A stretch of DNA of 64,000 nt, from NCBI GenBank assembly GCA_964585475.1, contig CAZPDF010000001.1, positions 81,337 to 145,336 on the forward strand, written 5' to 3'. Shown piece after piece: positions 1,772-53,957 of the stretch. The stretch comes from an uncultured Candidatus Saccharibacteria bacterium (GTDB lineage: Bacteria > Patescibacteriota > Minisyncoccia > Sungbacterales > HO2-52-23). Position 1 is the first letter of the stretch. The number at the start of each line of letters is the position of its first letter. The notes beneath the pieces are model-generated. The model saw only the letters and a list, made by a program, of their open reading frames with translations, had not been told where the DNA came from and did not search any database. A program made the position numbers and the translations under genes.

Positions 1772-4252
1772 ATGGAAAAATCTAAAATTATCGTATTTTC
1801 CACCGCCTATCACCCATTTACAGGCGGTGCCGAGATTGCAATTCAGGAAGTATTGAGGCGGCTTCAAGACCGCTTTGACCCGCGCACAGAAAGGCCAAAT
1901 GAGCTAGGCGAGGCCAGCGGCCTTTTGTGCGGGGCTTCGCCCTCCGCACGGACCCCAAAAAGTAGTGGTAATACAAGGGAAAGTTCAAGCCCGTGCTCCG
2001 GGCTCCGTTTTTATATTGTAACTTCCCGTTTCAGGCGGGATTTACCAAAGATCGAAGAGCGACCCGAGGGAACCGTTATTCGGTTAGGGTTAGGGACACG
2101 TTTCGATAAATGGTTTCTCCCTTTTCTTGGTTTTTTTTCCGCCCGCAGAATCATTCGGTCAAATGTCAATGGTCAAACGTCAAATGTTGTCATGTGGGCC
2201 GTAGATATCGGGCAGGGGTCACTGGCAGCTGCGGTTTTCAAACTTTTTCATCCCCGCATCCCTTTAATTTTAACACTCCAATATGGATATGGAGCAGGAA
2301 GAGTTGTAGGGGGGCGACTTGGTCTTATTGGTGTGGCGTTTCGTTTCATGCTACGCCGCGCGGATTATGTCACAGCGATTTCAATATACTTATTAAATCT
2401 CGCGAAGAACCATGGATATAGAGGGTCGGGAAGCATAGTGCATAATGGAGTAGATATAGAAAAGTTCACCCCGTCATTCGACCGGGTGCCCCGTCGAATG
2501 ACGGGGCAAAATCCAAATTCTAAAACAGTAATCACTGTCTCCCGGTTGGTGCCCAAAAATGGCATAGATACGCTGATTAGCGCCATAGTCGAAGTTAAAA
2601 AATCAATCCCACAAATTCGTTGCCACATTCTTGGTGAAGGACCAGAAAAAGAAAGTTTAAAGTCACAAGTTAAAAGTTTAAAGTTGGATGAGAATGTCGA
2701 GTTTTTTGGGAATGTTCCGTATGACGAGATATCGAAATATCTTCACGAAGCCGATGTTTTTGTAAGGGCCTCGCGCTCGGAGGGCATGGGGAATGCATTT
2801 GTTGAAGCGTTGGCGGCAGGTGTCCCGATTATTGGCACGCCGGTTGAGGGAATACTTGATATTATTCAGGATGGCAAGACCGGTTTTTTTGCGCGGGTGG
2901 ACGATCCCAACGATCTTGCGCAAAAAATCGTCTATGTCCTTCAAAATGAAAAGGAGAGCGAGCAGAGCGTTACGGAAGGAAGACGAATGGTTGAAGAAAA
3001 ATTTTCCTGGAATGGGATCGCGCAAAAATACAGGTTTATTTTCGACCGCTACTATAGAGGCGAAACCTCTATAGTATCTATAGAGGTTTCGCCTCTCCGT
3101 ATAGTTATTGCCACCCCTCTTTATCCGCCACAGCTTGGGGGGCCAGCAATTTATGCAAAGAATTTAGGTGAGGAATTTTCTCGCTTAAGGCATCAAGTAT
3201 CCATTGTTTCCTTTGGTAAGTTTTTGCGTCTGCCGTCTTTGGTCAGGCATTTTCTTTATTTTTTTAAGGTTTTTCGTAGTTCCATTGGCGCGGATATTAT
3301 TTTTGCCCTGGATTATTTTAGCGTTGGGGCGCCGGCCGCCCTCGCCGCCCTGCTTTTATGTAAGCCACTCGTCATCCGCGTAGAAGGCGATTTTTTGTGG
3401 GAGAGTTATGTCGAGCGAAGAAGGAGCGATACAACTCTTTCTATGTTTTACCCCGCTAGAAGTCAGCCCCGACGTGACGTCGGGGCTGCCGTTCCGCCGG
3501 TGGCGGAACGGACTTCTAACGGGGCTTACCGGAATCTCCCGAGATTGTCGGCCAAAGAGCGAGTGATCCATTTTATAAGCCGGTGGGTACTTGGACGCTC
3601 GCGCATTCTTGTTTTTTCTTCGGAATGGCGCCGCGAGATGGTTGTCGGCTCACGCGGCCATCTCCGCAAGAAGTCGATAATTATCGGGAATGTATGGCCT
3701 CCGCTTCTCGAAAATCTTTCGGCAGTTTCTCAAGGATCTCGTGTAATTCTTTGGGCCGGCCGCATGCTTTATTTAAAAAATCTATATCGTCTGCTCCGCG
3801 CGTTTTCCCGACTAAAATCTGATTACGAACTGCATTTGGTAGGGGATGGTCCGGAAGCGGAACGGCTAAAAAACTTTGTCACGCAGGAACGGATCAAGAA
3901 AGTTTTCTTTTTTCCCAAACTCCCGCATGAGGCGCTGCTTAAGAAAATGCGTGAGGCGGCATTTTTTGTTCTGCCCTCGCTTTCCGAGGTGGGCCCGAAC
4001 GTGATTGCTGATGCGGCATCTTCAGGAACCCCTTTTATTATGACGAGAGAGTCGGGTTATGCCGAGTATGCCAAGGATTTTGGAATTTTCGTTGATCCGC
4101 TCAATGAAAATGAGCTCACGCAAAAGTTGGGGATGCTAATGGAGGAGACCGCGCGCTATAATATAAGAAAGGGAATTATTAAATTCTACAGCGCCTATAC
4201 ATGGGGCGAGGCTGCTCAAGAATGGATTCAAGTATTCTCAAAGGTTCTATGA
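1772..4252 (+). CDS. Tandem-fused GT4-family (GT-B fold) glycosyltransferase with two complete GT4 units
   Basis: Two N-terminal GT4 motifs ('FSTAYHPFTGGAEI', 'IATPLYPPQLGGPAIY'). Two Glycos_transf_1-type C-domains ('EGMGNAFVEALAAGVPIIGT', 'SEVGPNVIADAASSGTPFIMT'). Confidence 0.7.
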   Translation: MEKSKIIVFSTAYHPFTGGAEIAIQEVLRRLQDRFDPRTERPNELGEASGLLCGASPSARTPKSSGNTRESSSPCSGLRFYIVTSRFRRDLPKIEERPEGTVIRLGLGTRFDKWFLPFLGFFSARRIIRSNVNGQTSNVVMWAVDIGQGSLAAAVFKLFHPRIPLILTLQYGYGAGRVVGGRLGLIGVAFRFMLRRADYVTAISIYLLNLAKNHGYRGSGSIVHNGVDIEKFTPSFDRVPRRMTGQNPNSKTVITVSRLVPKNGIDTLISAIVEVKKSIPQIRCHILGEGPEKESLKSQVKSLKLDENVEFFGNVPYDEISKYLHEADVFVRASRSEGMGNAFVEALAAGVPIIGTPVEGILDIIQDGKTGFFARVDDPNDLAQKIVYVLQNEKESEQSVTEGRRMVEEKFSWNGIAQKYRFIFDRYYRGETSIVSIEVSPLRIVIATPLYPPQLGGPAIYAKNLGEEFSRLRHQVSIVSFGKFLRLPSLVRHFLYFFKVFRSSIGADIIFALDYFSVGAPAALAALLLCKPLVIRVEGDFLWESYVERRRSDTTLSMFYPARSQPRRDVGAAVPPVAERTSNGAYRNLPRLSAKERVIHFISRWVLGRSRILVFSSEWRREMVVGSRGHLRKKSIIIGNVWPPLLENLSAVSQGSRVILWAGRMLYLKNLYRLLRAFSRLKSDYELHLVGDGPEAERLKNFVTQERIKKVFFFPKLPHEALLKKMREAAFFVLPSLSEVGPNVIADAASSGTPFIMTRESGYAEYAKDFGIFVDPLNENELTQKLGMLMEETARYNIRKGIIKFYSAYTWGEAAQEWIQVFSKVL
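3451..3524. repeat. Family-B palindromic element (CCCCGCTAGAAGTC...GACTTCTAACGGGG) inserted in frame in the GT4 fusion gene
   Basis: 14-bp terminal inverted repeats enclose the hairpin GCCCCGACGTGACGTCGGGGC. It is about 75 bp (25 codons) with no stop and encodes PARSQ...ERTSNGA. Confidence 0.7.
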
Positions 4253-10757: not shown

Positions 10758-12401
10758 ATGCGCGAGAAAACTATTTTTTTTCTCATTATATTTTCCATCT
10801 CGTTTTTTTTCTCCACATATAAACTTACCGAGAGTCCGCCCACGTGGTATGATGAGGGTTTTTTCTTCAACGTCGCCAGAAGCTACGCAGAATTTAACGA
10901 ATATAAATTTCAGGTAGCTCCGGGTGAATTTGTGCCCATGGGAAGGTATCTTACGGTTGGGTATCCGGTTATTTTCCCGGTTAGTATCTCGATGAAATTA
11001 GCCGGAGTGGGCCTCTTTCAGGAGCGAGCAGTAATGGCGGCTTTTATTCTCCTCTTAGTATGCGCGGTCTTCTTCTTTTTCTTGAGGAGACATGCCCCTG
11101 CGGAGGCGTTTCTTTTCACCCTGTTTTTTATAAGTTTTGGGTCTCTTTATGGAAATGGGAAAAATTTACTGGGCGAGATACCGGGAATTTTCTTTCTCAC
11201 AGCATTTTTATTGTTCTTTAACCTGCTTTTGGAAAAGAATCGGGGAAAAATGTATTTTGCCCTGCTCGCCGGTACTGCCTTGGGCCTCGGCATACTCTGC
11301 AAGCCCATTTTTATACTGGTAATCCCCGCATTTATAATCACTTTTTTGATTTTACGAAAAGATATACTGTTGAAAATCACGCGTAAGCACCTGGTTTTAT
11401 TTTTAGCTGCCGTTTTGGTGCCGCTTCTGGCCGCTATTTTTATTCAGTTTAATCGCTCGGACGATTCTTTGCTGACGGCTATTTTATTTTATATGAATCC
11501 TGCCGGCTGGAGTGGTTTTTCTGAAGTGCCGTCTATAATAATGCAAAATCTCCTGCGTCTGGTAACCGGTGCCACACCCTTGCATTTTCTTCTGCTCCTC
11601 GCTATCTGGACTTGGTGGATAGTGAAAAGAGTTCGCTGCAATTCTATACATTCTTTGCCTCCTGGCGAGCTATTCACTTTTTTATTTGTTATTTTAGTGG
11701 GATTTGCTTATTTAAGGACCCTTGGATGGTATAAGTATTTCTTTCCCGCGCATATGATGGTTTTTCTCTATTTCCCCGCCGCTCTTAAGGCACTTATAGA
11801 ACTGATAACGAGCAAATCCGCAAATGTCATTCTGAGCGTAGCGAAGAATCTCCCGCTTTGGGCGCAAAAGATCCTTCACGGAGCCTACCCTGAGATTCTT
11901 CACTTCGTTCAGAATGATGATCGAAGGGTTCAGGATGACAGCGGAAAAAGTGTCTTACTCGCTACCAATTCTGAATCTTCCATACAATATCTAAGAGGAC
12001 GGTTTGGGTTTCCTAATTTATTTCAGTGGGCGTTCATCGTCATAATTGTGATACAATTTTATCACCTGGTGTTTTTATCCTGGGTTTCCGGTTACTATTC
12101 AAGTACGCAGTCCAAAGAATTATCTGATTATTTTTCCGGCATTTCGCACGAAGAGAGTGTTTTTATCCACAGCGCCCCGGAAGCGGTTCTTTTCGTCCCT
12201 TCCAGTAACTATTATTTGTATCTGGATGATGTAATGGTAAGAAATATTGGCGCAGAACAGCTCGAGAAACTCGCCAGTGGAGTTCCCGACGTCGTTATTA
12301 TTCCTACGGAGTTAATAGATAGCCAGAGACAGTACCTCGCGCATTATAGAAAAGAAAAAGAACTCGTGGGTCAGTACACTGTTTTGAGAAAAGCGCCATG
12401 A
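10758..12401 (+). CDS. GT39/ArnT-like (PMT_2-type) integral-membrane glycosyltransferase
   Basis: Multi-TM N-terminal two-thirds typical of ArnT/PMT family GT-C enzymes. Follows a GT2 gene. Carries an in-frame family-A repeat. Confidence 0.5.
   Translation: MREKTIFFLIIFSISFFFSTYKLTESPPTWYDEGFFFNVARSYAEFNEYKFQVAPGEFVPMGRYLTVGYPVIFPVSISMKLAGVGLFQERAVMAAFILLLVCAVFFFFLRRHAPAEAFLFTLFFISFGSLYGNGKNLLGEIPGIFFLTAFLLFFNLLLEKNRGKMYFALLAGTALGLGILCKPIFILVIPAFIITFLILRKDILLKITRKHLVLFLAAVLVPLLAAIFIQFNRSDDSLLTAILFYMNPAGWSGFSEVPSIIMQNLLRLVTGATPLHFLLLLAIWTWWIVKRVRCNSIHSLPPGELFTFLFVILVGFAYLRTLGWYKYFFPAHMMVFLYFPAALKALIELITSKSANVILSVAKNLPLWAQKILHGAYPEILHFVQNDDRRVQDDSGKSVLLATNSESSIQYLRGRFGFPNLFQWAFIVIIVIQFYHLVFLSWVSGYYSSTQSKELSDYFSGISHEESVFIHSAPEAVLFVPSSNYYLYLDDVMVRNIGAEQLEKLASGVPDVVIIPTELIDSQRQYLAHYRKEKELVGQYTVLRKAP
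11826..11939. repeat. Family-A palindromic element inserted in frame in the GT39-like gene
   Basis: GTCATTCTGAGCGTAGCGAAGAATCT...AGATTCTTCACTTCGTTCAGAATGAT plus a trailing GTTCAGGATGACAGC. Translates without stop as ANVILSVAKNLPLWAQKILHGAYPEILHFVQNDDRRVQDDSG. Confidence 0.65.
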
Positions 12402-16002: not shown

Positions 16003-16974
16003 ATGGCAAAGATAGCGATCATTGGCTCCACGGGACAACTTGGCTATGATCTTTTGCGTTATGCTCCCGAGTCGGACACCGTGGTGGGTTTGGGGCACGG
16101 GGATATTGAAATAACGGACGCCAAAAACGTTACCGCAGTTTTGGAAAAGATCCGACCGGATATCGTAATAAACGCGGCGGCTTTTAATGAAACAGAAGAG
16201 GGAGAAAAAAATCCGATATTGCCTTTCAGCATCAATGCGGTTGGCGCATATCATGTGGCCAAGATCGCCGCAGATATTGGCGCCGCGGTCGTTCTCTTAA
16301 GCACGGATTACGTGTTTGACGGCACTAAGCCCTCCTTTAGCGAGGAAGATATACCGAATCCCCTCAATGTTCACGGCGCGTCAAAATACGCGGGGGAAAT
16401 ATTGACGCGGATTGCCAACCCCCGCAATTTTATTATCCGCACCGGATGGCTATTTGGAAAAAACACCAGCCATAAAGGATACAATTTTGTAACCCTGATG
16501 CTTGAGAAGGCCAAAAGCGAGAAGGAAATTAAGGTAGTGAACGACCAGGCGGGCAAGCCGACTTATACCGTTGATTTGGCGATTAAGATCTATGAACTTC
16601 TTCACCCCGTTACTCCCATGAAGCTCCGGCTTTCGGGGCGGAGCGGAATGGAAGTTGAAGGCCATCTATCAGCTTCCTTGGGAGAATCCTTACCCTTTAG
16701 AGCGGGGAGTAACGGGGTTCATAAAAATCCGCCGCATGGAATTTATCATCTTACCAATGAAGGCCAGGCAAGCTGGTTTGATTTTGCAAGAGAAATTTTT
16801 GAGCTCTCGCATCTTTCGGTGAAAGTAACTCCCATCTCAACGCTTGAGAGCGGATCCAAAATCAGGAGACCTAAATTTTCTATTCTCGAGAACCGCGCCA
16901 TACAAAAAATTGGTTTAGCGCCTCTTAGGTCTTGGCAGGAAGCGCTCGCTCGCTATCTTGAAGAAATAAAATAA
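16003..16974 (+). CDS. rfbD: dTDP-4-dehydrorhamnose reductase (RmlD-like) carrying a roughly 38-aa in-frame repeat insertion
   Basis: 'KIAIIGSTGQLGYDL'. 'VLLSTDYVFDG'. 'YGASKYAGE'. 'IIRTGWLFG'. Confidence 0.75.
   Translation: MAKIAIIGSTGQLGYDLLRYAPESDTVVGLGHGDIEITDAKNVTAVLEKIRPDIVINAAAFNETEEGEKNPILPFSINAVGAYHVAKIAADIGAAVVLLSTDYVFDGTKPSFSEEDIPNPLNVHGASKYAGEILTRIANPRNFIIRTGWLFGKNTSHKGYNFVTLMLEKAKSEKEIKVVNDQAGKPTYTVDLAIKIYELLHPVTPMKLRLSGRSGMEVEGHLSASLGESLPFRAGSNGVHKNPPHGIYHLTNEGQASWFDFAREIFELSHLSVKVTPISTLESGSKIRRPKFSILENRAIQKIGLAPLRSWQEALARYLEEIK
16606..16717. repeat. Family-B-variant palindromic element (CCCCGTTACTCC...GGAGTAACGGGG) in frame in rfbD
   Basis: 12-bp perfect terminal inverted repeats. 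Encodes an extra HPVTPMKLRLSGRSGMEVEGHLSASLGESLPFRAGSNGV loop not expected in RmlD. Confidence 0.6.
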
Positions 16975-18166: not shown

Positions 18167-18310
18167 GCGGGCAGCAATGTCCGCTTGTTTGTTACTTGCG
18201 GCAGACCTGTTGACTCAGCTTAGCAAACCATTTATCGTATAAAAGTGGTTACATATGAATAGGAGATGATTGGGCTGTCCGAAATTAACCTTTTTGATTA
18301 TATAAGGACA

Positions 18311-18324
18311 GACTTCTAACGGGG
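18311..18324. repeat. Solo family-B half-site (GACTTCTAACGGGG) abutting the start codon of the next gene
   Basis: Identical to the right arm of family-B elements. No left arm found within 150 bp upstream. Confidence 0.4.
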
Positions 18325-18755
18325 TGGAAATAACTAAAGGCATAAAACCGGAATTTGCGGATATAAGAGGCGCCATTACCAAAATTCTGGACGATGGCAG
18401 GACGAATATAAAAAGCGTCCTTTTGATCACTTCCAAAAAAGGAGCTATCCGCGCGAATCACTATCATAAAAAAGATACGCACTACTGTTATATGCTTTCG
18501 GGAAAAATGGAGTATTTTGAAAAGCCGGTCCCTAGGTCGCTTGATGCGACCGGGATTCCGGCCGAAGGTTTAGGGATTGACGGAGGAAAGATTGAATCGG
18601 CAGTGCTTGAAGTTGGCGATATGGTTTTTACCCCATCGATGCACGTCCACGCCTTTAAATTTCTTGAAGACACCGTGTGGGTTACGCTTGCCACCGAGTC
18701 AAGGTCGCAGGCCGATTACGAGGCGGACACGGTAAGGGTTAAATTCATAGAATAA
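18324..18755 (+). CDS. WxcM/FdtA-like cupin (dTDP-4-keto-6-deoxyhexose 3,4-ketoisomerase-like)
   Basis: 'ADIRGAITKIL...VLLITSKKGAIRANHYHKK...YMLSGKMEY' resembles the FdtA/QdtA core. GTG start. Confidence 0.5.
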   Translation: MEITKGIKPEFADIRGAITKILDDGRTNIKSVLLITSKKGAIRANHYHKKDTHYCYMLSGKMEYFEKPVPRSLDATGIPAEGLGIDGGKIESAVLEVGDMVFTPSMHVHAFKFLEDTVWVTLATESRSQADYEADTVRVKFIE

Positions 18756-27148: not shown

Positions 27149-28774
27149 TTACACCTCGCGGCAAAGTAGCGCCGAAGAAATCTTGCGCCAAGAGCGTAGG
27201 GTATTCCCAAAGAGCGGGGTAAAACCGTAACTGGCGAGGATAAATATGAAGGCGTTTACGGGGTAGCGGAAGCGGCCCTGGTCGCTGAAGCCGGCCACCG
27301 TACTCGTCAGAGCATAAGTGAAGATTATGGCGCTCATGATAAGCGCTATTTTTCTTTCCTGCCCGCCGCGTTTTATGGCGTAAGCCGCGCCCAAGACCCA
27401 TAAGACATTAAAAACGATCCATAGAGCCCGTCCGGCAACTGGAATGGGGGCGAACCATCCGATTCGTTCCCAGACAAGTTTTGCGAGTTTCATCGGCCCT
27501 TCCTGAAATAGGGTCACCGATGGGGAAAAATCAATCTGGAAACGGGGTACTGCGTGAAAATGTTGTAGATAAGTGAGATAGAGGTCTTGGGCAAAGAAAG
27601 TGGACATGCTGATTAAGACGACCTGTGCAGTCTCTTTTGGATAAGTAATGATGGTTTGCAGGCCCTCTTTTGCAAGCGCGGTGCCTATGCTCGGATTTTC
27701 TCCTATATCGCGGATTTCCAGGCCATGTCTTGCGGAAAAATCGCGGTTAAGCTCATTTTTTACTTCTCCGATGGGTCTTCCGGTGTTGAGAGAAAGAATT
27801 GAAGATCCGATGGAGGAGTAGACATTGCGGAGGCCGGTGGTGGCGATATTGAGGGTATTGAATTGATAGTAATTGCGGATGAGCCAGGGAGAAAGCACGA
27901 CGAAGAAAGCAAGGGTAAAAGCCAGCAATATGCGACTTCCTCGGTATTTTGCTTCTCCGGCACGCTCATCCGCTCCAGCGGCGGATTCGCTAAGGGTCGG
28001 TCGAGCCGCCCCGCCTTCGGCGGGTACCGAGCCGGCTCTACCTCCCATTACCGGCGAAGCAAAATACCTCGGCAGTATTTTAGATCGCCGCCACCTTAGG
28101 AGAAGGATGGAGAGAAGAAAGAAGAAGCCGAGTATAAAAAGAAATTGCGCGTGAGGGCGCGTTAGGGTGGAGAGCGCGAGGAAGATTCCGGCGAGAGCCG
28201 CATAGCGCATTCCCCAATCATCAACCCCGTTAGAAGTCTGTTCCGCCGAAGGCGGAACAGCAGATGCCTGTGGCATCTGACTTCTAACGGGGTCAAGGGT
28301 TTTTAAAAAAAAGTATGTCGCAAGAAGTAGAAAAAAAACCGCAACCGTTTCGGTAAGAACAAGAATGCTCCATACAGCACCCATCGGCTCAAACGCCATG
28401 AGTCCTGCGGCCAAAAGCGGTACCCCCCCCGACTTAGCAAGAAATTTAGCGATCGCGTATACCAGAATCGGCATAAGCGAAGAAAGAATTATTTGTAGTA
28501 TAAGTAGGGGCAGCATTGATCCGGAAAGTTTGAGGGAGCCCGCCATGAGCAAGGGAAAGATCGGAGGAAAATGGGCGCTTGGCTGGAAAGGTAGCGCTTC
28601 GCTTCCACTGAATCCGTTTCCGGCGACGATGTTCTTTGCCGTTAGAAGAAATCCGTAGGAATCGGATGTAAAAGTTTTTTCTTCGCCAAGCGTGTGGATA
28701 ATAGTAAAAAGCAGTGCAGCCCTTAAGACAAAAGTTGCGACAACGATAATGAGAAGTGTTCGCGGCAAATTCAT
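27149..28774 (-). CDS. GT39/ArnT-like integral-membrane glycosyltransferase with an in-frame family-B repeat and a C8/G8 homopolymer
   Basis: Multi-TM. 'LTAKNIVAGNGFSGS' ArnT/PMT-like N-region. Convergent with the GT2 at 26299. Confidence 0.5.
   Translation of the reverse strand: MNLPRTLLIIVVATFVLRAALLFTIIHTLGEEKTFTSDSYGFLLTAKNIVAGNGFSGSEALPFQPSAHFPPIFPLLMAGSLKLSGSMLPLLILQIILSSLMPILVYAIAKFLAKSGGVPLLAAGLMAFEPMGAVWSILVLTETVAVFFLLLATYFFLKTLDPVRSQMPQASAVPPSAEQTSNGVDDWGMRYAALAGIFLALSTLTRPHAQFLFILGFFFLLSILLLRWRRSKILPRYFASPVMGGRAGSVPAEGGAARPTLSESAAGADERAGEAKYRGSRILLAFTLAFFVVLSPWLIRNYYQFNTLNIATTGLRNVYSSIGSSILSLNTGRPIGEVKNELNRDFSARHGLEIRDIGENPSIGTALAKEGLQTIITYPKETAQVVLISMSTFFAQDLYLTYLQHFHAVPRFQIDFSPSVTLFQEGPMKLAKLVWERIGWFAPIPVAGRALWIVFNVLWVLGAAYAIKRGGQERKIALIMSAIIFTYALTSTVAGFSDQGRFRYPVNAFIFILASYGFTPLFGNTLRSWRKISSALLCREV
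28225..28292. repeat. Family-B palindromic element in frame in the GT39-like gene
   Basis: CCCCGTTAGAAGTC...GACTTCTAACGGGG. Encodes DPVRSQMPQASAVPPSAEQTSNGVDD on the minus strand. Confidence 0.7.
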
Positions 28775-29647: not shown

Positions 29648-30433
29648 ATGACTTTAGACTTTTATAGAAAAATTAGACATGTTCCAGCCGGTATTCTTGC
29701 AAAATTCTTTGAAAGACAGGCGGAAATGACGCTCCGAAAAAATCGTCCTTTGTGGGGTTTACTGCAGGATTATCTTAAAAATTCGCCCTCAACCGGATGC
29801 GCCTATTCTGATTATCTTCTTCTCTATAATTACATCAGAAACAGAAAGCCCAAGGAAGTTCTTGAGTGCGGTACGGGGGTTTCCACAGTTGTTATTGCGT
29901 ATGCGCTGAAAGAGAACGAACGGGATTATGGGATTAAGGGCAGGGTTACTTCAATGGAAGAATCGCCTAATTATTACAATGTAGCGCTAAAGCTGTTTCC
30001 AGAGAGAGAGAGCCTTAAAAGCTATGCAGAGATAGTATTGAGTCCGGTGATGGAAGATACTTATCATTTCTTTCGCGGCATACGTTATAAAGATGTTCCT
30101 TTGCGGCCATATGATTTTGTATTTGTGGATGGCCCTGATTATTTGTGCGATCCAAAAGGCGAGATAATTTTATTCAATTTTGATTTTGTGGATATAGTTA
30201 GAAAATCAGAAAAACCCGTAGGGGCCCTGATAGATACCAGAACCACCACCTGTTTTGTGTACTCACTGCTTTTTGGAGATGAGTTTAGATATGACTATGT
30301 GCGAAAAGTGGGAATCGTGGAGCCGGTTACGAAAAACGATCTCGCGCCGGTCCAAAAAATTGTCGCAAGGTCAATGAGGGCGCATTCATTCAAAAGGCCG
30401 CCTTTCCTGAATTTCATACGAGGAACTTATTGA
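29648..30433 (+). CDS. Class I SAM methyltransferase (Methyltransf_24/CmcI-like)
   Basis: 'VLECGTGVSTVVIAYAL'. 'DFVFVDGPD'. Confidence 0.45.
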   Translation: MTLDFYRKIRHVPAGILAKFFERQAEMTLRKNRPLWGLLQDYLKNSPSTGCAYSDYLLLYNYIRNRKPKEVLECGTGVSTVVIAYALKENERDYGIKGRVTSMEESPNYYNVALKLFPERESLKSYAEIVLSPVMEDTYHFFRGIRYKDVPLRPYDFVFVDGPDYLCDPKGEIILFNFDFVDIVRKSEKPVGALIDTRTTTCFVYSLLFGDEFRYDYVRKVGIVEPVTKNDLAPVQKIVARSMRAHSFKRPPFLNFIRGTY

Positions 30434-31905
30434 ATACAGGTATGAAAACAATTTTTATTACTATTGATGATCCGGCGGCACTAAAGAACATTTTCGGCAC
30501 CAAAGCATGGCCCGAGGTTTTGCGATCTTCCGCGGATGCCAAACTCGTGCTTTTGACGAGGCCTAGCAAAAAGGAAGCACACGAGAAGTTCTTTGTTGCG
30601 CCGAACATCGTGGTTGAAGCGCTTGATCCTGCGTTTGATTCTCTTATGTCGGGCGTAATTGCGTCTCTGGCCCGCAGCGGGATTAGAACCCATACCAATC
30701 TTTGGTCTAAAATGCGCTCTTACGAACGGGGTGATTCTGGGTTTTTGGTGACAATGTTCAAGCGGGCATATACTTTTCTTTTGGGCGGATCGTCTCTCAA
30801 TAAGAGGTTTTTGCGTCGTATCTTTCTGGGGCTTGCGCCGGCCAAAGCGACGGCCGCACTCTTTGAAAAATATCAGCCCTCGCTTCTTTTTGCGACCTCG
30901 CTCACCAACATTGATTTTGACGTGCCTATCGCGGTTGAGGCGAAAAGGCGCGGCATACGGATCGTCGGCATGGTGCGAAGCTGGGATAATTTTTCGAGCC
31001 ACGGGCTCACTCGTGTAATCCCGGATCGGTTGATCTTGCAAAATAAGTTTTTAAAAGATATGGCCGAGCGGCACCAGGCTATCACCGAAAAAGACGTGCC
31101 GATCGATATCGTTGGTTTGCCGCACTATGACATGTATGTCGGTTTTGAAAAAATGCTTGAAAGCAGAGAATCATTTTTCCAAAGGATGGGGCTCGACCCT
31201 TCAAAAAAACTGATTCTTTACGGGGCAATGGGGGATTTTCTTTTTCCGAATGAGGGGGGAATGGCCGACGTGCTTGAGGAACTGATTGACCCCGTTAGAA
31301 GTCAGACGCCAAAGGCATCTGCTTATTCCCAAGGGAATCAGACTTCTAACGGGGTTGAATCGCGGGCTATTCAAGAGCCAGCCCAAGTTCTTTTCCGCGC
31401 CCACCCAAAATTCAATAGTCCCCTTGAAAGGATGAAAGGAATGAAACATGTTAAGCCGGACAAAGACGTGTCCAATAGTACGGGCGATTTCATGAAGCAT
31501 CTTATAAATTCCATTTACCATAGTGATATTGTTGTTGCTGGCGCATCTACGATCGTGATTGATTCTATAATGTTGGCAAAACCCGTGATTTGCGTTGGTT
31601 TCGATGGCCTTGAAAAAAAGGTTCCCTATTGGACTTCGGTAAAGCGTTTTTATGACTGCTACACGCATTTTGAAGCGTTAATGGAAACAGGCAATATACC
31701 GCTTGCGAATACCAAAGCAGAATTGGCGCGTTTAATAGATGAGGCCCTCCGGCAGAAATCCTACGACCAAGAGCCGCGCCAAAAAGTGATTGATCTTTTC
31801 GTGGCGCCATTTGATGGACATTCAAGCGAGCGGCTCGCCCAAATCTTAGTCAAAGAATTTACTAGTATACGAGATGGACAGCGGATTCAACCAAAAATTC
31901 ATTGA
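30430..31905 (+). CDS. GT-B-fold polysaccharide biosynthesis protein (CDP-glycerol glycerophosphotransferase TagB/F-like or capsule-synthesis KpsS-like) with an in-frame family-B repeat
   Basis: Two Rossmann-like halves. 'FRAHPKF...IVVAGASTIVIDSIMLAKPVICV'. The family assignment is uncertain. Confidence 0.35.
   Translation: MNTGMKTIFITIDDPAALKNIFGTKAWPEVLRSSADAKLVLLTRPSKKEAHEKFFVAPNIVVEALDPAFDSLMSGVIASLARSGIRTHTNLWSKMRSYERGDSGFLVTMFKRAYTFLLGGSSLNKRFLRRIFLGLAPAKATAALFEKYQPSLLFATSLTNIDFDVPIAVEAKRRGIRIVGMVRSWDNFSSHGLTRVIPDRLILQNKFLKDMAERHQAITEKDVPIDIVGLPHYDMYVGFEKMLESRESFFQRMGLDPSKKLILYGAMGDFLFPNEGGMADVLEELIDPVRSQTPKASAYSQGNQTSNGVESRAIQEPAQVLFRAHPKFNSPLERMKGMKHVKPDKDVSNSTGDFMKHLINSIYHSDIVVAGASTIVIDSIMLAKPVICVGFDGLEKKVPYWTSVKRFYDCYTHFEALMETGNIPLANTKAELARLIDEALRQKSYDQEPRQKVIDLFVAPFDGHSSERLAQILVKEFTSIRDGQRIQPKIH
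31290..31354. repeat. Family-B palindromic element in frame in the TagF-like gene
   Basis: CCCCGTTAGAAGTCAG...GACTTCTAACGGGG. Encodes DPVRSQTPKASAYSQGNQTSNGVE. Confidence 0.7.
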
Positions 31906-39461: not shown

Positions 39462-40610
39462 ATGGGAAATAAAAAAGGACACATTTTGATTACCGGAGGG
39501 GCTGGGTTTATCGGCTTTTATCTTGCCGAATTATTTCGAGAATCCGGATTTTCAGTAAGAATCCTGGACGTTGCTTCGCGTCCTGATGGTTTAGCGAAAG
39601 ACATTGAATACTTCCAGGGTGATGTAACAAGCAAAGGATCATGGAGCCGCGCACTTCAGGGAATAAGCCACGTGTTCCATCTTGCGGCCTATGGCGATAA
39701 CCGTCCGGACTTTCACAAGTGTTTTACCGTAAATGCCGCGGCGTCCGCGCTTCTTTATGAAGTTATAAGAGATGAAAAGTTGCCGGTTAAGCAGATAATT
39801 GTCGCGTCTTCCCAGTCGGTGTACGGAGAAGGGAAATATCTTTGTAAAACTCACGGGGTATTTTATCCCGTCTCAAGAGTAAAGAAAGATTTAGAATCAG
39901 GACTGTGGGATATTCATTGTCCGGAAGACGGCTTGCTGGCAGAAGTTCTGCCGTCCGCAGAAGAAGATAAGCTCTGTCCAGTTTCCCCTTACGGCATATC
40001 GAAGATGGCGGTTGACCACATTGCGCTTACCCTGGGCAGGGAGTTAAACATTCCTTCTGTGGCCCTGCGTTATTCCATGGCAAGCGGAGCGTATCCTTCC
40101 ATGCGCGCAATTTATCCCAATGCCATTAAATATTTCACGGAGCAGGCATTGAAAAATGAATCGATTTCTCTGCATGAAGACGGAAATCAGTCGCGCGATT
40201 TTATAGATATCCGCGACCTTGGAAAAGCCCACCTTGCGGTTTTGGATAATCCGGCTGTATATTTTCAGGCCTTCAATATAGGAAGCGGCAAGTCAATTAA
40301 AATTCGCGATCTTGCAGAGATGGTGTATAAAATTGTCGGAGTCGAATTTACCCCCCCACCAGAAAGACGCACCCAGAAAGACGAAAGCGATTGGCAAAAA
40401 AAGGCGAAGCGTAGAATAGGGGTGCATAGGTATAAACTTATGGTGGGGGGGTTTAAGCCGGTTTTCCGAAATGAGTTCCGTCCCTTTACTCCGCGTCATA
40501 TGGTAATGTCTATTAAAAAAATTAAAGATGTCCTCGGCTGGCGCCCCGTACATACTTTGGAAGAAAGTATCACAGAATATATAACGGCGGTCAAAAATAA
40601 AAGCGCATAA
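39462..40610 (+). CDS. NAD-dependent nucleotide-sugar epimerase/dehydratase (extended SDR), with an in-frame family-E repeat
   Basis: 'ILITGGAGFIGFYL'. 'YGISKMAVDH' (YxxxK). Paralog of 44969..46090(-). Confidence 0.7.
   Translation: MGNKKGHILITGGAGFIGFYLAELFRESGFSVRILDVASRPDGLAKDIEYFQGDVTSKGSWSRALQGISHVFHLAAYGDNRPDFHKCFTVNAAASALLYEVIRDEKLPVKQIIVASSQSVYGEGKYLCKTHGVFYPVSRVKKDLESGLWDIHCPEDGLLAEVLPSAEEDKLCPVSPYGISKMAVDHIALTLGRELNIPSVALRYSMASGAYPSMRAIYPNAIKYFTEQALKNESISLHEDGNQSRDFIDIRDLGKAHLAVLDNPAVYFQAFNIGSGKSIKIRDLAEMVYKIVGVEFTPPPERRTQKDESDWQKKAKRRIGVHRYKLMVGGFKPVFRNEFRPFTPRHMVMSIKKIKDVLGWRPVHTLEESITEYITAVKNKSA
40350..40452. repeat. Family-E palindromic element (ACCCCCCCACCA...TGGTGGGGGGGT) in frame in the epimerase gene
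   Basis: 12-bp perfect terminal inverted repeats. Encodes FTPPPERRTQKDESDWQKKAKRRIGVHRYKLMVGGFKP, absent from the paralog at 44969. Confidence 0.65.
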
Positions 40611-40682: not shown

Positions 40683-41210
40683 ATGGCAAAGTCATTAGTC
40701 CGGGAAATACTGGAACATTTAGCTATCTGTGCCCCCCGCCTGATGGTGGACTCGCTTTTTATTCCTTATGGCCAAAGTTTAGGACGGACTTTGCGGCAGA
40801 TTGAAAAGTTGGCGGCCCTCTGTCCCCACGATTTTTCAGGTCATTCCAGGGGCACCGTCTCGGTCACGCTCCATAGAATGAAAAAGAACAAGTTGGTATC
40901 CATAAGCGGCCCCAAGAAAAAAGCGATATGGCGTATTACGCAGAAAGGAAAAAGCCATTTCAAAAATATAGAAAAGGGAATTAGTCTTCCGCCCGAGGAC
41001 GGAAAGACGCGGGTGATAATGTTCGACATACCCGAAGACAGGCGAGTAGAAAGAAACTGGTTACGCGGGGAATTGTCGGCTTGTGATTATACTCCCCTTC
41101 AAAAGAGTGTTTTTATGGGCACAAGACCGTTGCCGACAAGATTGTTGGAAGAACTCGAGAGTCGGGGGTTGCTTTCTCATATACACGTGGTCGGACTGGA
41201 GAGCGATTAG
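40683..41210 (+). CDS. Winged-HTH transcriptional regulator with a PaaX-middle/Cas2-like C-terminal domain (mini PaaX-like repressor)
   Basis: wHTH 'GTVSVTLHRMKKNKLVSISGPKKKAIWRITQKG'. C-terminal 'RVIMFDIPEDRRVERNWLRGELSACDYTPLQKSVFMG' resembles the PaaX_M/Cas2-like fold. Confidence 0.35.
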   Translation: MAKSLVREILEHLAICAPRLMVDSLFIPYGQSLGRTLRQIEKLAALCPHDFSGHSRGTVSVTLHRMKKNKLVSISGPKKKAIWRITQKGKSHFKNIEKGISLPPEDGKTRVIMFDIPEDRRVERNWLRGELSACDYTPLQKSVFMGTRPLPTRLLEELESRGLLSHIHVVGLESD

Positions 41211-47793: not shown

Positions 47794-48645
47794 ATGATGC
47801 TAAAGAATAAAAAAGCGATTATAACCGGAGGAGGTCGGGGAATTGGCAAGGCGGTGGCTGAAGCATTCGCTAAAGAAGGAGCGGATATTTTGTTGATTTC
47901 CCGTACCCGACAGGAGCTGGAGGCGACTAGTCGCGAATTGAGTCGTCAGGACCAGAGCGTAATAGTCGAGTCAGCCGATGTATCTAAAGTGGAGGACGTA
48001 GAAAACATCCGTAGAATTGTGCAAGAATCCTGGGGCCGAGTTGATATTTTAGTGAATGCGGCCGGCATATACGGACCCATAGGTTGCCTGGAGGATCTTG
48101 ATCTAGAGAATTGGATGCAAACTTTTTCGGTAAATATTTTCGGCACCGTACTTATGTGCCGTATGGCGCTGCCATTTATGAAAAAGCAAAAATGGGGGAG
48201 GATTATTAATTTTTCCGGAGGAGGTGAAGGCCCTCTGCCTAGATTCACCGCTTACTCTTCGTCCAAGGGAGCGGTGGTAAGGTTCACGGAGTCCTTGAAT
48301 GAGGAGGTCAAGGGGGACAATATTTGTGTAAACGCCATAACTCCCGGGCCCGTAAATACTGCCTTTTTGGAGGAGGTGCTCAAGGCCGGTTCGGAGCATG
48401 CAGGGGAAGATTTTTATCGCCAGGCCTTGGAGCAAAAAAAAGAGGGCGGGATTCCTCCGGAAAAAGCTGCGCGGCTTTGCTTATTTTTAGCAGGCGAGGA
48501 GGCCCACGGAATTGGCGGCAAAGTTTTGAGTGCCGTCTGGGATAATTGGCAGGATATTCCTAAGCATTTGAAGGAAATCATGGGATCGGATATATATAAT
48601 TTTAGAAGGATTAAACCAAGTGATCGCGGATATACCGGGTGGTGA
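47794..48645 (+). CDS. SDR-family oxidoreductase
   Basis: 'ITGGGRGIGKAVAEAF'. 'YSSSKGAV' YxxxK. Confidence 0.7.
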   Translation: MMLKNKKAIITGGGRGIGKAVAEAFAKEGADILLISRTRQELEATSRELSRQDQSVIVESADVSKVEDVENIRRIVQESWGRVDILVNAAGIYGPIGCLEDLDLENWMQTFSVNIFGTVLMCRMALPFMKKQKWGRIINFSGGGEGPLPRFTAYSSSKGAVVRFTESLNEEVKGDNICVNAITPGPVNTAFLEEVLKAGSEHAGEDFYRQALEQKKEGGIPPEKAARLCLFLAGEEAHGIGGKVLSAVWDNWQDIPKHLKEIMGSDIYNFRRIKPSDRGYTGW

Positions 48646-48646
48646 A

Positions 48647-48825
48647 CCCCGTTAGAAGTCTCAGCCCGTCCGAAAACTGTCATCCTGAGTGCTAACGAAG
48701 GATCTCTACCGTAGAAAATGGCTTAAATATTAGATTCTTCGCTTCGCTCAGAATGACAAAAATGTATTTTTAGGAGTTTTCGGACGGGCTGAGCAGATGC
48801 CTGCGGCATCTGACTTCTAACGGGG
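48647..48825. repeat. Composite nested palindromic element: family-B outer arms, a second inner inverted repeat (TCAGCCCGTCCGAAAAC/GTTTTCGGACGGGCTGA) and a family-A element at the core (48679..48755)
   Basis: Outer arms CCCCGTTAGAAGTC / GACTTCTAACGGGG. Inner family-A arms GTCATCCTGAGTGCTAACGAAGGATCTC / AGATTCTTCGCTTCGCTCAGAATGAC. Confidence 0.65.
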
Positions 48826-50964: not shown

Positions 50965-51708
50965 ATGGAAGAATATGAATATAGTAATTTGGCGCGTAGA
51001 GAATCTTTCTATTTTTGGAATATAGGCAGGAGAGAGATTCTGCGGGATGCGTTGCGGAGGCACCTTTCCCCTTCTTTGACGCGCGAGATCTTGGACATAG
51101 GATGCGGCCCCGGCGGAAACATTTTGATTTTGCAGGAATTCGGACGGGTGACCGGCCTCGATATATCGGAATCGGCTCTTTCTTTTGCCAAAAACCGGGG
51201 CTTTGCCCGGTTGATTAGCGCTTCGGCCGAGAATATTCCTTTTCCGGATGCATCTTTTGATATGGTGAGCGCCTTAGATATGTTGGAACATGTTGAAGAA
51301 CAAGAAAAAGTTCTGGCGGGTGCGTTCAGGATTTTAAAGACCGGCGGGATCTTTTTGGTAACTGTTCCCGCGCATCCTTGGCTTTGGAGCGCTCATGATG
51401 AGGCCCTGCACCATCTTAGGAGATATGCGCAAAAAGACATAATTCTCAAATTGGAGAAGGCGGGTTTTCGGGTGCTCGAAAAAAGCCATTTTGTAACCGT
51501 GGCTGTTCTGGTGAATTATTTGCGGTTGTTTCGTGATAAGATTTTTTCCGGCGCTCAAAAAAAGGATAAAGCTAAGACCTATGACGTCGAATTTCCGGTT
51601 CTTCTTAATTCCCTGCTTTTATTTATCTTGCGCTGTGAGAAAGTATTTATCAGATTTTTCTCGATCCCACTGGGAAGTTCTCTTATGTTGGTCGTCCAAA
51701 AACCATGA
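50965..51708 (+). CDS. Class I SAM-dependent methyltransferase
   Basis: 'ILDIGCGPGGN'. 'LKTGGIFLVTVP'. Confidence 0.6.
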   Translation: MEEYEYSNLARRESFYFWNIGRREILRDALRRHLSPSLTREILDIGCGPGGNILILQEFGRVTGLDISESALSFAKNRGFARLISASAENIPFPDASFDMVSALDMLEHVEEQEKVLAGAFRILKTGGIFLVTVPAHPWLWSAHDEALHHLRRYAQKDIILKLEKAGFRVLEKSHFVTVAVLVNYLRLFRDKIFSGAQKKDKAKTYDVEFPVLLNSLLLFILRCEKVFIRFFSIPLGSSLMLVVQKP

Positions 51709-51710
51709 GT

Positions 51711-51826
51711 CCCGTTAGAAGCCGCGATCGCATATCAAAAATAACAAATATCTATAATGTACAACACTTTAGTTATAAATAACCCACGTGGATCGGATCA
51801 CTTGATCGCGATCTGCTTCTAACGGG
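51711..51826. repeat. Family-B-variant palindromic element (CCCGTTAGAAGC...GCTTCTAACGGG) with nested inner inverted repeat (CGCGATCG) and an AT-rich core containing TATAAT
   Basis: 12-bp terminal inverted repeats. Fills the intergenic gap exactly between the methyltransferase stop and the GT39 start. Confidence 0.6.
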
Positions 51827-53344
51827 ATGAGATTAGAAAAAAAAGAGGCGTTCCTCATCATTTTTACGATCGTTTCCGTGTCAGCTCTATTTTTGCTGAT
51901 TTATTTTTATTTCGGTCCGGAAAATTATTACTGGGGCGGATTTGACTTCATAGAGTACGACATCCTAGGAAAGAATCTCGCTGAAGGCAACGGTTTTTCT
52001 TTGCGGGAGGCGCCTCCTTATTTGCCGAGCGCCACCCGTCTGCCCGGCTACCCGCTGCTGCTCGCTTTATCCAAAATACTAATTGGCAGCAACGTTTTGG
52101 TTTTGGCGCTGCAGATCATTTTTCTTGGCTTGATTGCTCTCCTAACTTATAGAATTTCGTTTTACCTTTTTTCCAGTGTAACTCTTTCGATGCTAGCGGC
52201 TTTGTTTATGGTTTTTGACCCGGACCATCTTCTTAATACTTTAATGCTTATGAGCGATTTGATTGCCGCTGGATTTTTACTGCTCTCTTTATATTTTTTG
52301 CTTAAATTTGCGGAGCGTAATCCGCCGAGCGAAGGAGAGGCGGGGTTTAAATATTTCTATTTAGCCGTAGCAAGTTTGGTTCTTTCGTCTTTCATAAGAC
52401 CCACGCCGCTATTGCTGATTTTCTTGTACGGCTCTATGTTTTTATGGGTTAGTTTCCGAATCAAAGTTCCAATGCGAAAAATCATTTATGGCGGGTGCTT
52501 AGTGTTTTTGATCGTAGCGCTCCCTTTTGGTTTCTGGCTTGGACGCAATTATAAAGCTTTTGGCATATTGTCTCTGACCTCTTCCGGCGGAATAGCACAG
52601 TTTCTCTCCATCTCCCCTGCGGTAAGAGCCCTTGGAGAGGGCATATCTCAAGGGGAAGCAAGGAAGAGGTCCTTTGCGGAATTTCGCAGAGAAATGAATT
52701 TGGAGCCGTTTCCCGACTTTCCCAATGTTTTTTATAGGCAGGACCTTGACTCGCTGACCTGGTTTATGATCACGGAGAATTTTTCCTACGGTGATTGGGC
52801 CTTGAAACATGCGCGTGCCATTTTCCGCAAATACCCCGGAGAGTATTTAAGGGTTTCTGCCGTATCGGGCCTTGACTTTCTTACCGAGGCCAACTGGTCT
52901 AATTTATTGGAGCAGTACGGCCTGCTTCGTTTTTACGATCGGCCCTCGCAGCCCTTGCGCGAGATTTTAGCCATGGCCAATTGGGGGGAGTTGGGATCGG
53001 CCCTGAAGGAAAGATTTTTTTGCAGTTTTAGATGCGTAACGGCTTTTATTCTGACAACCATAGGCAGAGTTTATTGGATAGCGATGACTATCGGCGCGGT
53101 TTTTGGCTTTTATTATTTTTTCCGCGACCGGAAATTAATTAATAAAAGATTGCCTGCACTGATTATTTTATTCTGCATTCTTTATACGGTGGCAGTACAC
53201 GTTTATTTAATTGGACCGTCTACCCAGCCGCGCTATCGTCTGCCTATAGCGCCCTTCCTCGTCATGTTCGGCTTGTACGGAGTGTGGTTTATGAAGAAGC
53301 GGATTTTTACAAAACGCGCGCTTGACGAATTTCAAATAGTGTGA
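51827..53344 (+). CDS. GT39/ArnT-like integral-membrane glycosyltransferase
   Basis: Multi-TM. 'LGKNLAEGNGFSL' N-region similar to 27149(-) 'LTAKNIVAGNGFSGS'. Confidence 0.5.
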   Translation: MRLEKKEAFLIIFTIVSVSALFLLIYFYFGPENYYWGGFDFIEYDILGKNLAEGNGFSLREAPPYLPSATRLPGYPLLLALSKILIGSNVLVLALQIIFLGLIALLTYRISFYLFSSVTLSMLAALFMVFDPDHLLNTLMLMSDLIAAGFLLLSLYFLLKFAERNPPSEGEAGFKYFYLAVASLVLSSFIRPTPLLLIFLYGSMFLWVSFRIKVPMRKIIYGGCLVFLIVALPFGFWLGRNYKAFGILSLTSSGGIAQFLSISPAVRALGEGISQGEARKRSFAEFRREMNLEPFPDFPNVFYRQDLDSLTWFMITENFSYGDWALKHARAIFRKYPGEYLRVSAVSGLDFLTEANWSNLLEQYGLLRFYDRPSQPLREILAMANWGELGSALKERFFCSFRCVTAFILTTIGRVYWIAMTIGAVFGFYYFFRDRKLINKRLPALIILFCILYTVAVHVYLIGPSTQPRYRLPIAPFLVMFGLYGVWFMKKRIFTKRALDEFQIV

Positions 53345-53870: not shown

Positions 53871-53926
53871 CCCCGTTACTTGACCGCAGTCGAGTCAGAC
53901 TCGACCACAGGGCATTCAAGTAACGG
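53871..53926. repeat. Family-B-variant palindromic element (CCCCGTTACTTGA...TCAAGTAACGG) with inner hairpin GTCGAGTCAGACTCGAC
   Basis: Lies in the 5' leader of the IMPase-family gene. Confidence 0.55.
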
Positions 53927-53957
53927 AGTAAATAACTGCATTCTCAATAATTTCTTT

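Follow-up and report, generated by a model that had tools for sequence, protein, structure and literature searches.

A palindromic, MITE-like element inserted in frame in rmlD of an uncultured patescibacterium, with relatives at unrelated sites in several phyla

The DNA analyzed here is a 64,000-nucleotide (nt) stretch of contig CAZPDF010000001.1 from an uncultured Candidatus Saccharibacteria bacterium; the whole stretch is referred to below as the window. At positions 16003 to 16974 (+ strand) it carries rmlD, an open reading frame (ORF) of 323 amino acids (aa) for dTDP-4-dehydrorhamnose reductase, which hosts the palindromic insertion described in this report. The gene lies in an intact sugar-nucleotide cluster and adjoins an RmlB-like gene. 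A first-pass annotation of the window had proposed that roughly 38 palindromic codons interrupt an otherwise normal RmlD, noting that the ORF exceeds the typical length of about 290 aa, and had suggested alignment to a characterized enzyme. The homologues had a median length of 287 aa. The protein matched PDB RmlDs (phmmer, E = 5e-59) and Pfam PF04321 (RmlD_sub_bind; E = 3.2e-79), the latter in two stretches divided by the insert. The parts aligned by phmmer to Bacillus anthracis RmlD (3sc6) were residues 3 to 202 and 245 to 322, separated by only 2 to 3 residues in 3sc6, so that the insert was left out. The proposed insertion is thus borne out by these split matches, together with the homologue comparison and the copies at unrelated sites described below.

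In an alignment of 77 sequences, the insert columns were filled by this protein alone (0/76 homologues), and the same result was obtained with an alignment of 14 sequences. An AlphaFold2 (AF2) model built from the 77-sequence alignment retained the entire RmlD fold, with a mean predicted local distance difference test score (pLDDT) of 91; outside the insert, Foldseek gave target-normalized template modeling scores of 0.95 to 0.96 against the RmlD crystal structures 3sc6 and 1vl0. Residues 201 to 245 were modeled as coil, and blocks of 10 residues over positions 201 to 240 averaged pLDDT values of 39 to 64. The insert is predicted to form a surface loop between the helix at residues 189 to 200 and the strand at residues 246 to 249, the kind of position that the first-pass annotation had anticipated. 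A surface segment that is in frame and free of stops could also belong natively to a special RmlD subfamily, as a functional loop for protein interaction or regulation, for instance. However, a conserved subfamily carrying the segment, which the annotation had named as the outcome that would overturn its claim, did not emerge among the 76 homologues; moreover, the segment is perfectly palindromic in its DNA and flanked by a duplication, its closest copy (86% identical) is intergenic, and unrelated proteins contain its relatives in other reading frames. We regard a native loop as extremely improbable.

The insert amounts to 117 extra bases, comprising a 113-nt element (16605 to 16717) and one 4-nt TTCA. 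Since TTCA stands on either side of the element (16601 to 16604 and 16718 to 16721), as expected of a target-site duplication, the sum of 113 and 4 nt gives 39 codons, in frame and stop-free; the initial estimate of 38 codons was one short, and the start given at 16606 was one base off. As the annotation had also stated, inverted repeats bound the insert: the left terminal inverted repeat (TIR), CCCCGTTACTCCC, occupies 16605 to 16617 and the right TIR, GGGAGTAACGGGG, 16705 to 16717. Their match is perfect for 13 nt and extends to 14 nt if A16604 and T16718 are counted. The left junction reads ...CTT C[TTCA] followed by CCCCGTTACTCCC, and the right junction reads GGGAGTAACGGGG followed by [TTCA]T AAA.... 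Three hairpins are predicted between the termini by folding and family comparison. Hairpin 1 (16623 to 16644) corresponds to helix 2 of the family and is partly decayed in this copy; in the family alignment, all 6 of its pairs have changed on both sides. A central hairpin (16650 to 16677) is limited to the rmlD copy and its closest relatives and lies in a region that varies across the family. The third (16680 to 16704) is a degraded remnant of family helix 3, GCCCCGNCC-TTTA-GGNCGGGG, recognizable by comparison with the closest copy and the family alignment. All of these features are given on the + strand.

Several statistics set the element apart from its surroundings. Perfect 13-nt inverted repeats within 150 nt gave 35 observed windows against 0.17 in shuffles, and CCCCGTTA occurred 14 times (2.06 expected), a number attained in 0/100 shuffles. 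The folding of the element region had a z score of -4.35, and the GC content was 57.5% in the element versus 46.5% in the remainder of rmlD. The assembly is metagenomic and the element comes from a repeat family, so short-read assemblers might in principle have joined a repeat into rmlD. This is nevertheless very unlikely: the locus was 100% identical over 6.4 kb between the ENA assembly and the Logan assembly of SRR8863434 (although the two may share reads), a misjoin would not be expected to leave so clean a 4-nt duplication or a length exactly in frame, and a blastn search with the element found a single copy in the window, the other matches being shared termini only.

We searched for further copies by scanning one genome per species with the exact pattern ACCCCGTTAC-N70-100-GTAACGGGGT. 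At least 119 stretches matched, compared with about 28 expected by chance (our rough estimate, not a computed value). The matches listed came mostly from groundwater and belonged to metagenome-assembled genomes (MAGs) labeled Parcubacteria, Saccharibacteria, Sungbacteria, Azambacteria, Uhrbacteria, Omnitrophota, Nitrospirota, Nitrospinota, Stahlbacteria, and others, some labels being products of automated binning that may be loose. Identical 4-nt flanks were present at 96 of 123 elements among the matches listed. A second scan of metagenome contigs, using ends of the rmlD type and leaving the flanks unconstrained, recovered 29 copies, 24 of which had identical 4-nt flanks (TTCA, TTTA, TGAA, CTAA/TTAG, TTAA, TTCG, and others). 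Altogether, the CCCCGTTAC/GTAACGGGG ends marked more than 140 elements, which lie in unrelated contexts in MAGs of Patescibacteria, Omnitrophota, Nitrospirota, and others.

Family members are 92 to 120 nt long. When they were clustered by interior similarity, the rmlD element, a CCCCGTTAC-type copy of the TCCC subfamily, fell into a group of 29 alignable members in which the first 9 nt are invariant (29/29). The 5′ part of the group consensus is CCCCGTTAC-ACCC-nGAAAG-CCCCGGCC-TTCA-GGnCGGGG-AGGAATGG, followed by a variable stretch and then by the 3′ part, AGAAG-CCCCGnCC-TTTA-GGnCGGGG-TGTAACGGGG. Over the three family helices, with related copies counted as independent, 93.8% of cells were paired compared to 85.0% in shuffles, and 65 cells carried changes on both sides compared to 25 in shuffles; the observed values were attained in 0/500 shuffles in both cases. 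On the top strand, G.T pairs (51) outnumbered A.C pairs (26). The closest copy (L141) is 113 nt long, is identical to the rmlD copy at 97 of 113 positions (86%), is flanked by TTCA, and is situated between genes on an unrelated metagenome contig. It folds with -70.7 kcal/mol, versus -54.8 kcal/mol for the rmlD copy, and its hairpins are more perfect, which suggests that the rmlD copy is the older, drifting one. The rmlD element is short, has TIRs, is noncoding, is flanked by a duplication of constant 4-nt length, and has dispersed copies, all of which are features of MITEs, miniature transposable elements that have inverted repeats and are shorter than about 300 bp.

The largest protein cluster among the loci (14 loci) was considered as an orthologous host gene and rejected, because the similarity is confined to the peptide encoded by the element; this removes a threat to the independence of the insertions. 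The family has inserted independently at other sites. One such site is a second RmlD (P0008, contig L003), about 60% identical to the one studied here, which carries a related 101-nt element at a different TTCA, likewise between two TTCA repeats. A near-identical homologue of that protein (P0007, contig L004) has an uninterrupted site with one TTCA, and the two form a filled/empty pair. The homologues without the segment, the copies elsewhere, and this pair together identify the rmlD insert as a mobile nonautonomous element and not a feature of RmlD. No published description of the family emerged from full-text searches on the terminal motif, on MITEs of Patescibacteria or the candidate phyla radiation, and on Rickettsia palindromic elements in MAGs; as the coverage of these searches was incomplete, this is weak evidence. 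The wider family seems to be large, to span several phyla, and to be undescribed.

Some family members have an unusual organization. At L076:6960-7072 and L115:767-882, a tRNA-Val(CAC) gene, complete and replacing the usual hairpins, lies between the paired inverted repeats CCCCGTTACAAGTC.../CCCCGTTACAAATT...; the L076 copy has TTCA flanks. These copies may be elements with a tRNA cargo. At L142:1161-1272, a larger element has a short CCCGTTAC...GTAACGGGG element nested within one of its hairpins. The loops of family hairpins are often TTCA or TTTA, the same tetranucleotides as the targets.

Next, we considered whether copies within genes are translated. In an in-silico test that is independent of the content of the element, the element and one flank were excised and restoration of a long ORF was scored. 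The verified hosts with in-frame, stop-free copies were RmlD (twice), UvrA, GyrA, a UvrD-like helicase, the DNA polymerase III delta subunit (HolA), a HAD hydrolase, and a pilin-like protein. With the exception of a PaaX-like gene discussed below, every copy in a verified gene has a length that is a multiple of 3 and leaves the host frame free of stops. Four more genic cases (including L080 and L113) are also in frame and stop-free, in hosts that have no Pfam match or are only putative. In contrast, intergenic copies fall into all three length classes and contain many stops. This difference is the pattern expected of translation and speaks against splicing or bypass. The reading frame itself varies by copy, giving either HPVTP...SNGV or TPL...VTG. 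Thus, what is conserved is the DNA, and only frame-compatible insertions persist in genes. The SNGV peptide, which had been noted as shared among insertions, is correct insofar as AGT AAC GGG GTT is one frame of the conserved terminus; other copies read ...VTG, so that the DNA and not the peptide is held in common. The number of open frames per element was 1.65 versus 1.24 of 6, a modest excess. Copies L021, L049, L095, L060, and L096, which had appeared to disrupt genes, turned out to be located at the ends of genes or within spurious ORFs. To judge from length and stop content, the genic copies seem to undergo translation, in the manner of Rickettsia palindromic elements.

The competing possibility is that a normal RmlD is made because the element is cut out of the transcript or passed over in translation, in the manner of an intron, of an intervening sequence excised by RNase, or of a bypass of the T4 gene 60 type. 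In such a scheme, CAC and CAT (both His), contributed by the TTCA repeats on either side, would serve as matching codons for take-off and landing, with the strong hairpin as the driving force. The strong fold fits such a reading, as do helices maintained by compensatory changes with an excess of G.U on the sense strand, the sense orientation of the majority of genic copies, and the restoration of the PaaX-like gene by precise excision in spite of its stops. Mobile bypass elements are documented for relatives of T4 gene 60, according to bioRxiv 10.1101/2022.08.31.505936. However, removal or bypass would free both length and stops from constraint, contrary to what is seen in verified genes. A search of the whole window against Rfam 15 at the gathering score gave 0 hits (no RNA family, ribozyme, or intron), a local search at E <= 10 returned nothing relevant (best E value, 2.2), and core motifs resembling hammerheads were absent on inspection by eye. 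In T4 gene 60, a stop codon follows the take-off codon; none follows the would-be take-off codon here. We therefore consider removal or bypass improbable.

Taken together, the evidence is best explained by a copy of a MITE-like element that integrated in rmlD and is translated through as a tolerated loop, a joint reading to which we assign a probability of roughly 85%. The element is a small nonautonomous mobile DNA of about 100 to 115 nt with perfect TIRs starting CCCCGTTAC and 2 to 3 internal GC-rich hairpins. It integrated at a TTCA tetranucleotide within rmlD, which gained 117 nt (39 codons) in frame and without a stop. The rmlD mRNA is most likely read straight through, yielding RmlD with a disordered 39-residue loop (HPVTPMKLRLSGRSGMEVEGHLSASLGESLPFRAGSNGV) off the core fold. 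The element probably contributes nothing to the enzyme and would be a tolerated selfish passenger, in a copy that seems already to be decaying, given its 86% identity to a more palindromic one. Its mobilization presumably requires an enzyme supplied in trans.

Several observations weigh against this explanation. No empty-site allele of this particular rmlD was found, the nearest homologue being about 63% identical. The PaaX-like gene (L005:3108-3205 and L093:4420-4517) carries a 98-nt element of in-frame length with 3 stops in the middle of PaaX_M, and precise in-silico excision gives back intact PaaX_M and PaaX_C. In L006, the putative host ORF, possibly a TPR gene, has an element with one stop. 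Read-through is thus not universal among genic copies. These hosts may be fresh pseudogenes; for the PaaX-like gene, the choice lies between a fresh pseudogene and an element left untranslated. Pfam scans of about 40 ORFs in the window revealed only sugar and glycan genes and no transposase or recombinase, and no long element or orphan pair of ends with the same termini was present in 1.01 Mb of locus DNA. The statistics on covariation given above and on orientation given below count related copies as independent. Finally, a substitution in the catalytic motif of the host enzyme, described next, raises the possibility that rmlD is under relaxed selection, in which case its tolerance of the insert tells little.

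The YxxxK motif of the protein reads His124-G-A-S-Lys128, with CAC as codon 124 (16372 to 16374). The tyrosine position is Y in 74 of the 77 aligned sequences and W in two, while this RmlD has His; the protein departs in this respect from the catalytic Tyr-x-x-x-Lys of short-chain dehydrogenases. T101, D102, Y103, and K128 are the majority residues of the alignment, and G8 and G11 lie in invariant columns. On this sequence evidence, the encoded enzyme may be impaired or may work by a variant mechanism. The rmlD copy might accordingly be a decaying or catalytically dead gene in which the insertion was tolerated through relaxed selection, a view that is compatible with integration and read-through but alters what tolerance means. 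His124 and the 14% drift of the element from a pristine copy fit a dead gene. Against it stand the ORF, intact through 323 codons, the retention of the six residues named above, the confident AF2 fold, the intact cluster next to the RmlB-like gene, and the presence of the same element family in frame in essential genes elsewhere, including those for GyrA, UvrA, and HolA. We judge a dead gene to be unlikely, though less so than removal or bypass.

As to how the family moves, TIRs combined with a duplication of constant 4-nt length are classically taken as the mark of DDE cut-and-paste transposition. After the copies had been oriented by their interiors, however, the flanks read TTCA in 16 cases, TTTA in 10, and a TTCA/TTTA hybrid in 1, versus TGAA in only 1 (binomial P = 2e-7), and in smaller clusters the oriented flanks were equally uniform (TCAA, 4/4; TAAA, 3/3; TTTA, 4/5). 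The right-hand repeat was followed by C in 27 of 35 copies, whereas the left-hand repeat was preceded by G in 10 of 35 (Fisher P = 1e-4), an asymmetry which indicates one-strand reading of the target, as TTYA^C. A single module, repeated in the same sense, makes up the two GC hairpins. Selection for open frames in genic copies could add to these patterns. Orientation-specific TTYA(C) targets, same-sense hairpins, and compensatory changes, as read from the aligned copies, are unlike symmetric DDE transposition and would point to transposition of single-stranded DNA by an HUH/Y1 enzyme or to site-specific recombination. They recall strand-specific systems of the HUH/Y1 kind (IS200/IS605 and RAYT/TIRYT transposases) or, alternatively, the recombination of a circle junction (...GGGG-TTYA-CCCC...) with a TTYAC target.

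Searches for the responsible enzyme were largely negative. All-against-all clustering of the 2312 ORFs of the loci yielded no recurrent transposase-like protein. In tblastn searches of the loci with approximate queries for IS608 TnpA and Escherichia coli RAYT, no TnpA was found, and the only match was a C-terminal RAYT-like fragment (L096:2-190; E = 0.005). This fragment lies 1.4 kb from an element copy, and its flank has no CCCCGTTA end or matching repeat. A guide rule in the style of IS608, with TTCA or TTTA specified by the bases 5′ of hairpin 1, failed, giving only a loose trend, and was dropped.

The closest parallel is with Rickettsia palindromic elements (RPEs), which (Ogata et al. 2000) PMC10969869 and PMC3733652 describe as palindromes of about 100 to 150 bp lying in frame in unrelated housekeeping ORFs, stop-free, translated as extra surface peptides, and without a known transposase. 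The present family likewise consists of in-frame, stop-free palindromes within unrelated protein genes. It differs in its CCCCGTTAC... termini and non-Rickettsia hosts, with no sequence relation evident from descriptions of RPEs, in its clear 4-nt flanking duplication and filled/empty pairs, and in the many copies that are intergenic or on stop codons. Genes for replication and repair, uvrA and uvrB among them, also harbor repetitive extragenic palindromic (REP) sequences, and the tyrosine (HUH) transposases that mobilize REPs and REPINs are of the RAYT/TIRYT type (Di Nocera et al. 2013, PMC3733652). Our family resembles intragenic REPs and REPINs in placing palindromes within genes, notably those for replication and repair, and in forming hairpin doublets of similar overall size, and the strand-specific action of RAYT/TIRYT would fit its orientation bias. 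Unlike REPs and REPINs, it lacks the GTAG/CGTC tag that marks one end of their 20- to 40-nt palindromes, the termini being CCCCGTTAC/GTAACGGGG, and has long perfect TIRs and a 4-nt flanking repeat; one short palindrome of the window (2469 to 2506) contains CCCCGTC.

MITEs derived from DDE insertion sequences (ISs) include the Correia elements of Neisseria, and the IS5, IS701, and IS1380 families give 4-bp duplications. With such MITEs the family shares small size, TIRs, a duplication of fixed length, many copies, and the lack of coding capacity; it differs in its asymmetric target (TTYA, then C), in its compensatory hairpins, and in that no parent IS was found in 1.01 Mb. IS200/IS605 elements have neither TIRs nor a duplication, and IS608 inserts 3′ of TTAC. 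Like these elements and their nonautonomous derivatives (PATEs), the family has two similar subterminal hairpins of the same orientation and a one-strand asymmetry; like IS200/IS605, it inserts in one orientation beside a specific tetra- or pentanucleotide, and TTYAC contains TTAC. The presence of TIRs is unlike IS200/IS605, and so would be the flanking repeat if it is a true duplication, although a repeat carried by the element would look the same in sequence. The rmlD insert is in-frame selfish palindromic DNA, a known phenomenon, and appears to belong to neither the RPEs nor the REPs.

The window contains about 10 palindromes with (A)CCCCGTTA.../...TAACGGGG(T) ends, most of which have 3- to 4-nt direct repeats outside and several of which lie in frame within long ORFs. 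The kinship that had been proposed between the rmlD insert and other elements of the window holds at the level of these shared termini. An element at 53871 to 53928 (+), previously called a sibling of the rmlD insert, shares an 11-nt terminus with it and nothing more; it is a short intergenic element of 58 nt from a different subfamily (CCCCGTTACTTGACC..., the CTTGACC type with TAAA flanks; here cAAA/tAAA), has full-length relatives at L031, L056, L086, and L111, and is better described as a cousin. Two elements of family A, for which no strand is assigned, lie in frame in ORFs: one at 28225 to 28292, with CCCCGTTAGAAGTC ends and a TCAA repeat, in the ORF at 27149 to 28774 (-), and one at 31290 to 31354, with a TTGA repeat, in the ORF at 30430 to 31905 (+). 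Including these two, at least seven further in-frame palindromes of several families, among them a TCATTCTGAGCGTAGCGAAGAATC type and a ACCCCCCCACC type, were noted (2469 to 2506, 3451 to 3524, 11827 to 11917, 27935 to 28076, 28225 to 28292, 31290 to 31354, and 40351 to 40451). Their hosts are glycosyltransferase, PMT-like, and epimerase ORFs of the glycan-synthesis cluster, and the Pfam domains of the glycosyltransferase and epimerase ORFs are cut into two stretches. Beside the insertion-bearing epimerase lies a gene for a 175-aa PaaX_M (Cas2-like) protein (40683 to 41207), whose protein family is also that of the gene interrupted in L005 and L093.

Other elements of the window lie at gene boundaries. 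Those at 48647 to 48825 and 51710 to 51827 are placed exactly on the TGA stops of the ORFs at 47794 to 48645 and 50965 to 51708, respectively. In the copy at 48647, another palindrome family is nested in the first hairpin. In the copy at 51710, the outermost pair is T...A instead of C...G (TCCCGTTA/TAACGGGA), and its final A is the A of the ATG of the ORF at 51827 to 53344; with these shared end bases, the original ATGA stop/start overlap seems to be preserved on both sides. A solo right end, GACTTCTAACGGGG (18302 to 18324), abuts the GTG start of the ORF at 18324 to 18755 and has no recognizable left partner.

A recurrent position was also seen in genes for type IV pilin-like proteins, where 11 of 121 elements sit exactly in the GGN-TTY-ACN codons of the prepilin motif G|FT(L/I)(I/V)E (L018, L029, L041, L063, L064, L067, L072, L080, L102, L114, and L116, with tandem copies in L080). 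Since the GTAACGGGG end followed by TTYAC remakes V-T-G-F-T, the peptidase site would be rebuilt, and the peptide of the element would leave with the leader.

In-frame selfish palindromes have so far been known mainly from Rickettsia, where their mobilization and their effects on proteins are unexplained. The same behavior is now seen in Patescibacteria, Omnitrophota, and neighboring lineages, which have small genomes supposed to be poor in mobile DNA. With clean junctions, filled/empty pairs, and more than 140 copies, target choice, strand bias, and the filter for in-frame, stop-free copies can be measured from public data. The inserts also bear on annotation: they lengthen proteins, divide domain matches (RmlD_sub_bind in the present case), and produce spurious protein families made of element peptides, so that both protein annotation and clustering are affected in the genomes of candidate phyla. 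Beyond what is known of in-frame palindromes, the strand-specific target preference of the wider family stands as an unexplained feature. We tentatively suggest, as a possibility less likely than its alternatives, that these elements form a cross-phylum superfamily of hairpin transposons with CCCCGTTA termini, a length of about 60 to 120 nt, and a 4-nt repeat, which would use an HUH mechanism or site-specific recombination, rather than DDE transposition, to enter TTYA(C) sites in a single orientation and would be preadapted to coding sequence. If so, its members would land on the G|FT codons of prepilin genes and remake the motif, and would add loops to GyrA, UvrA, HolA, and RmlD of ultra-small bacteria.

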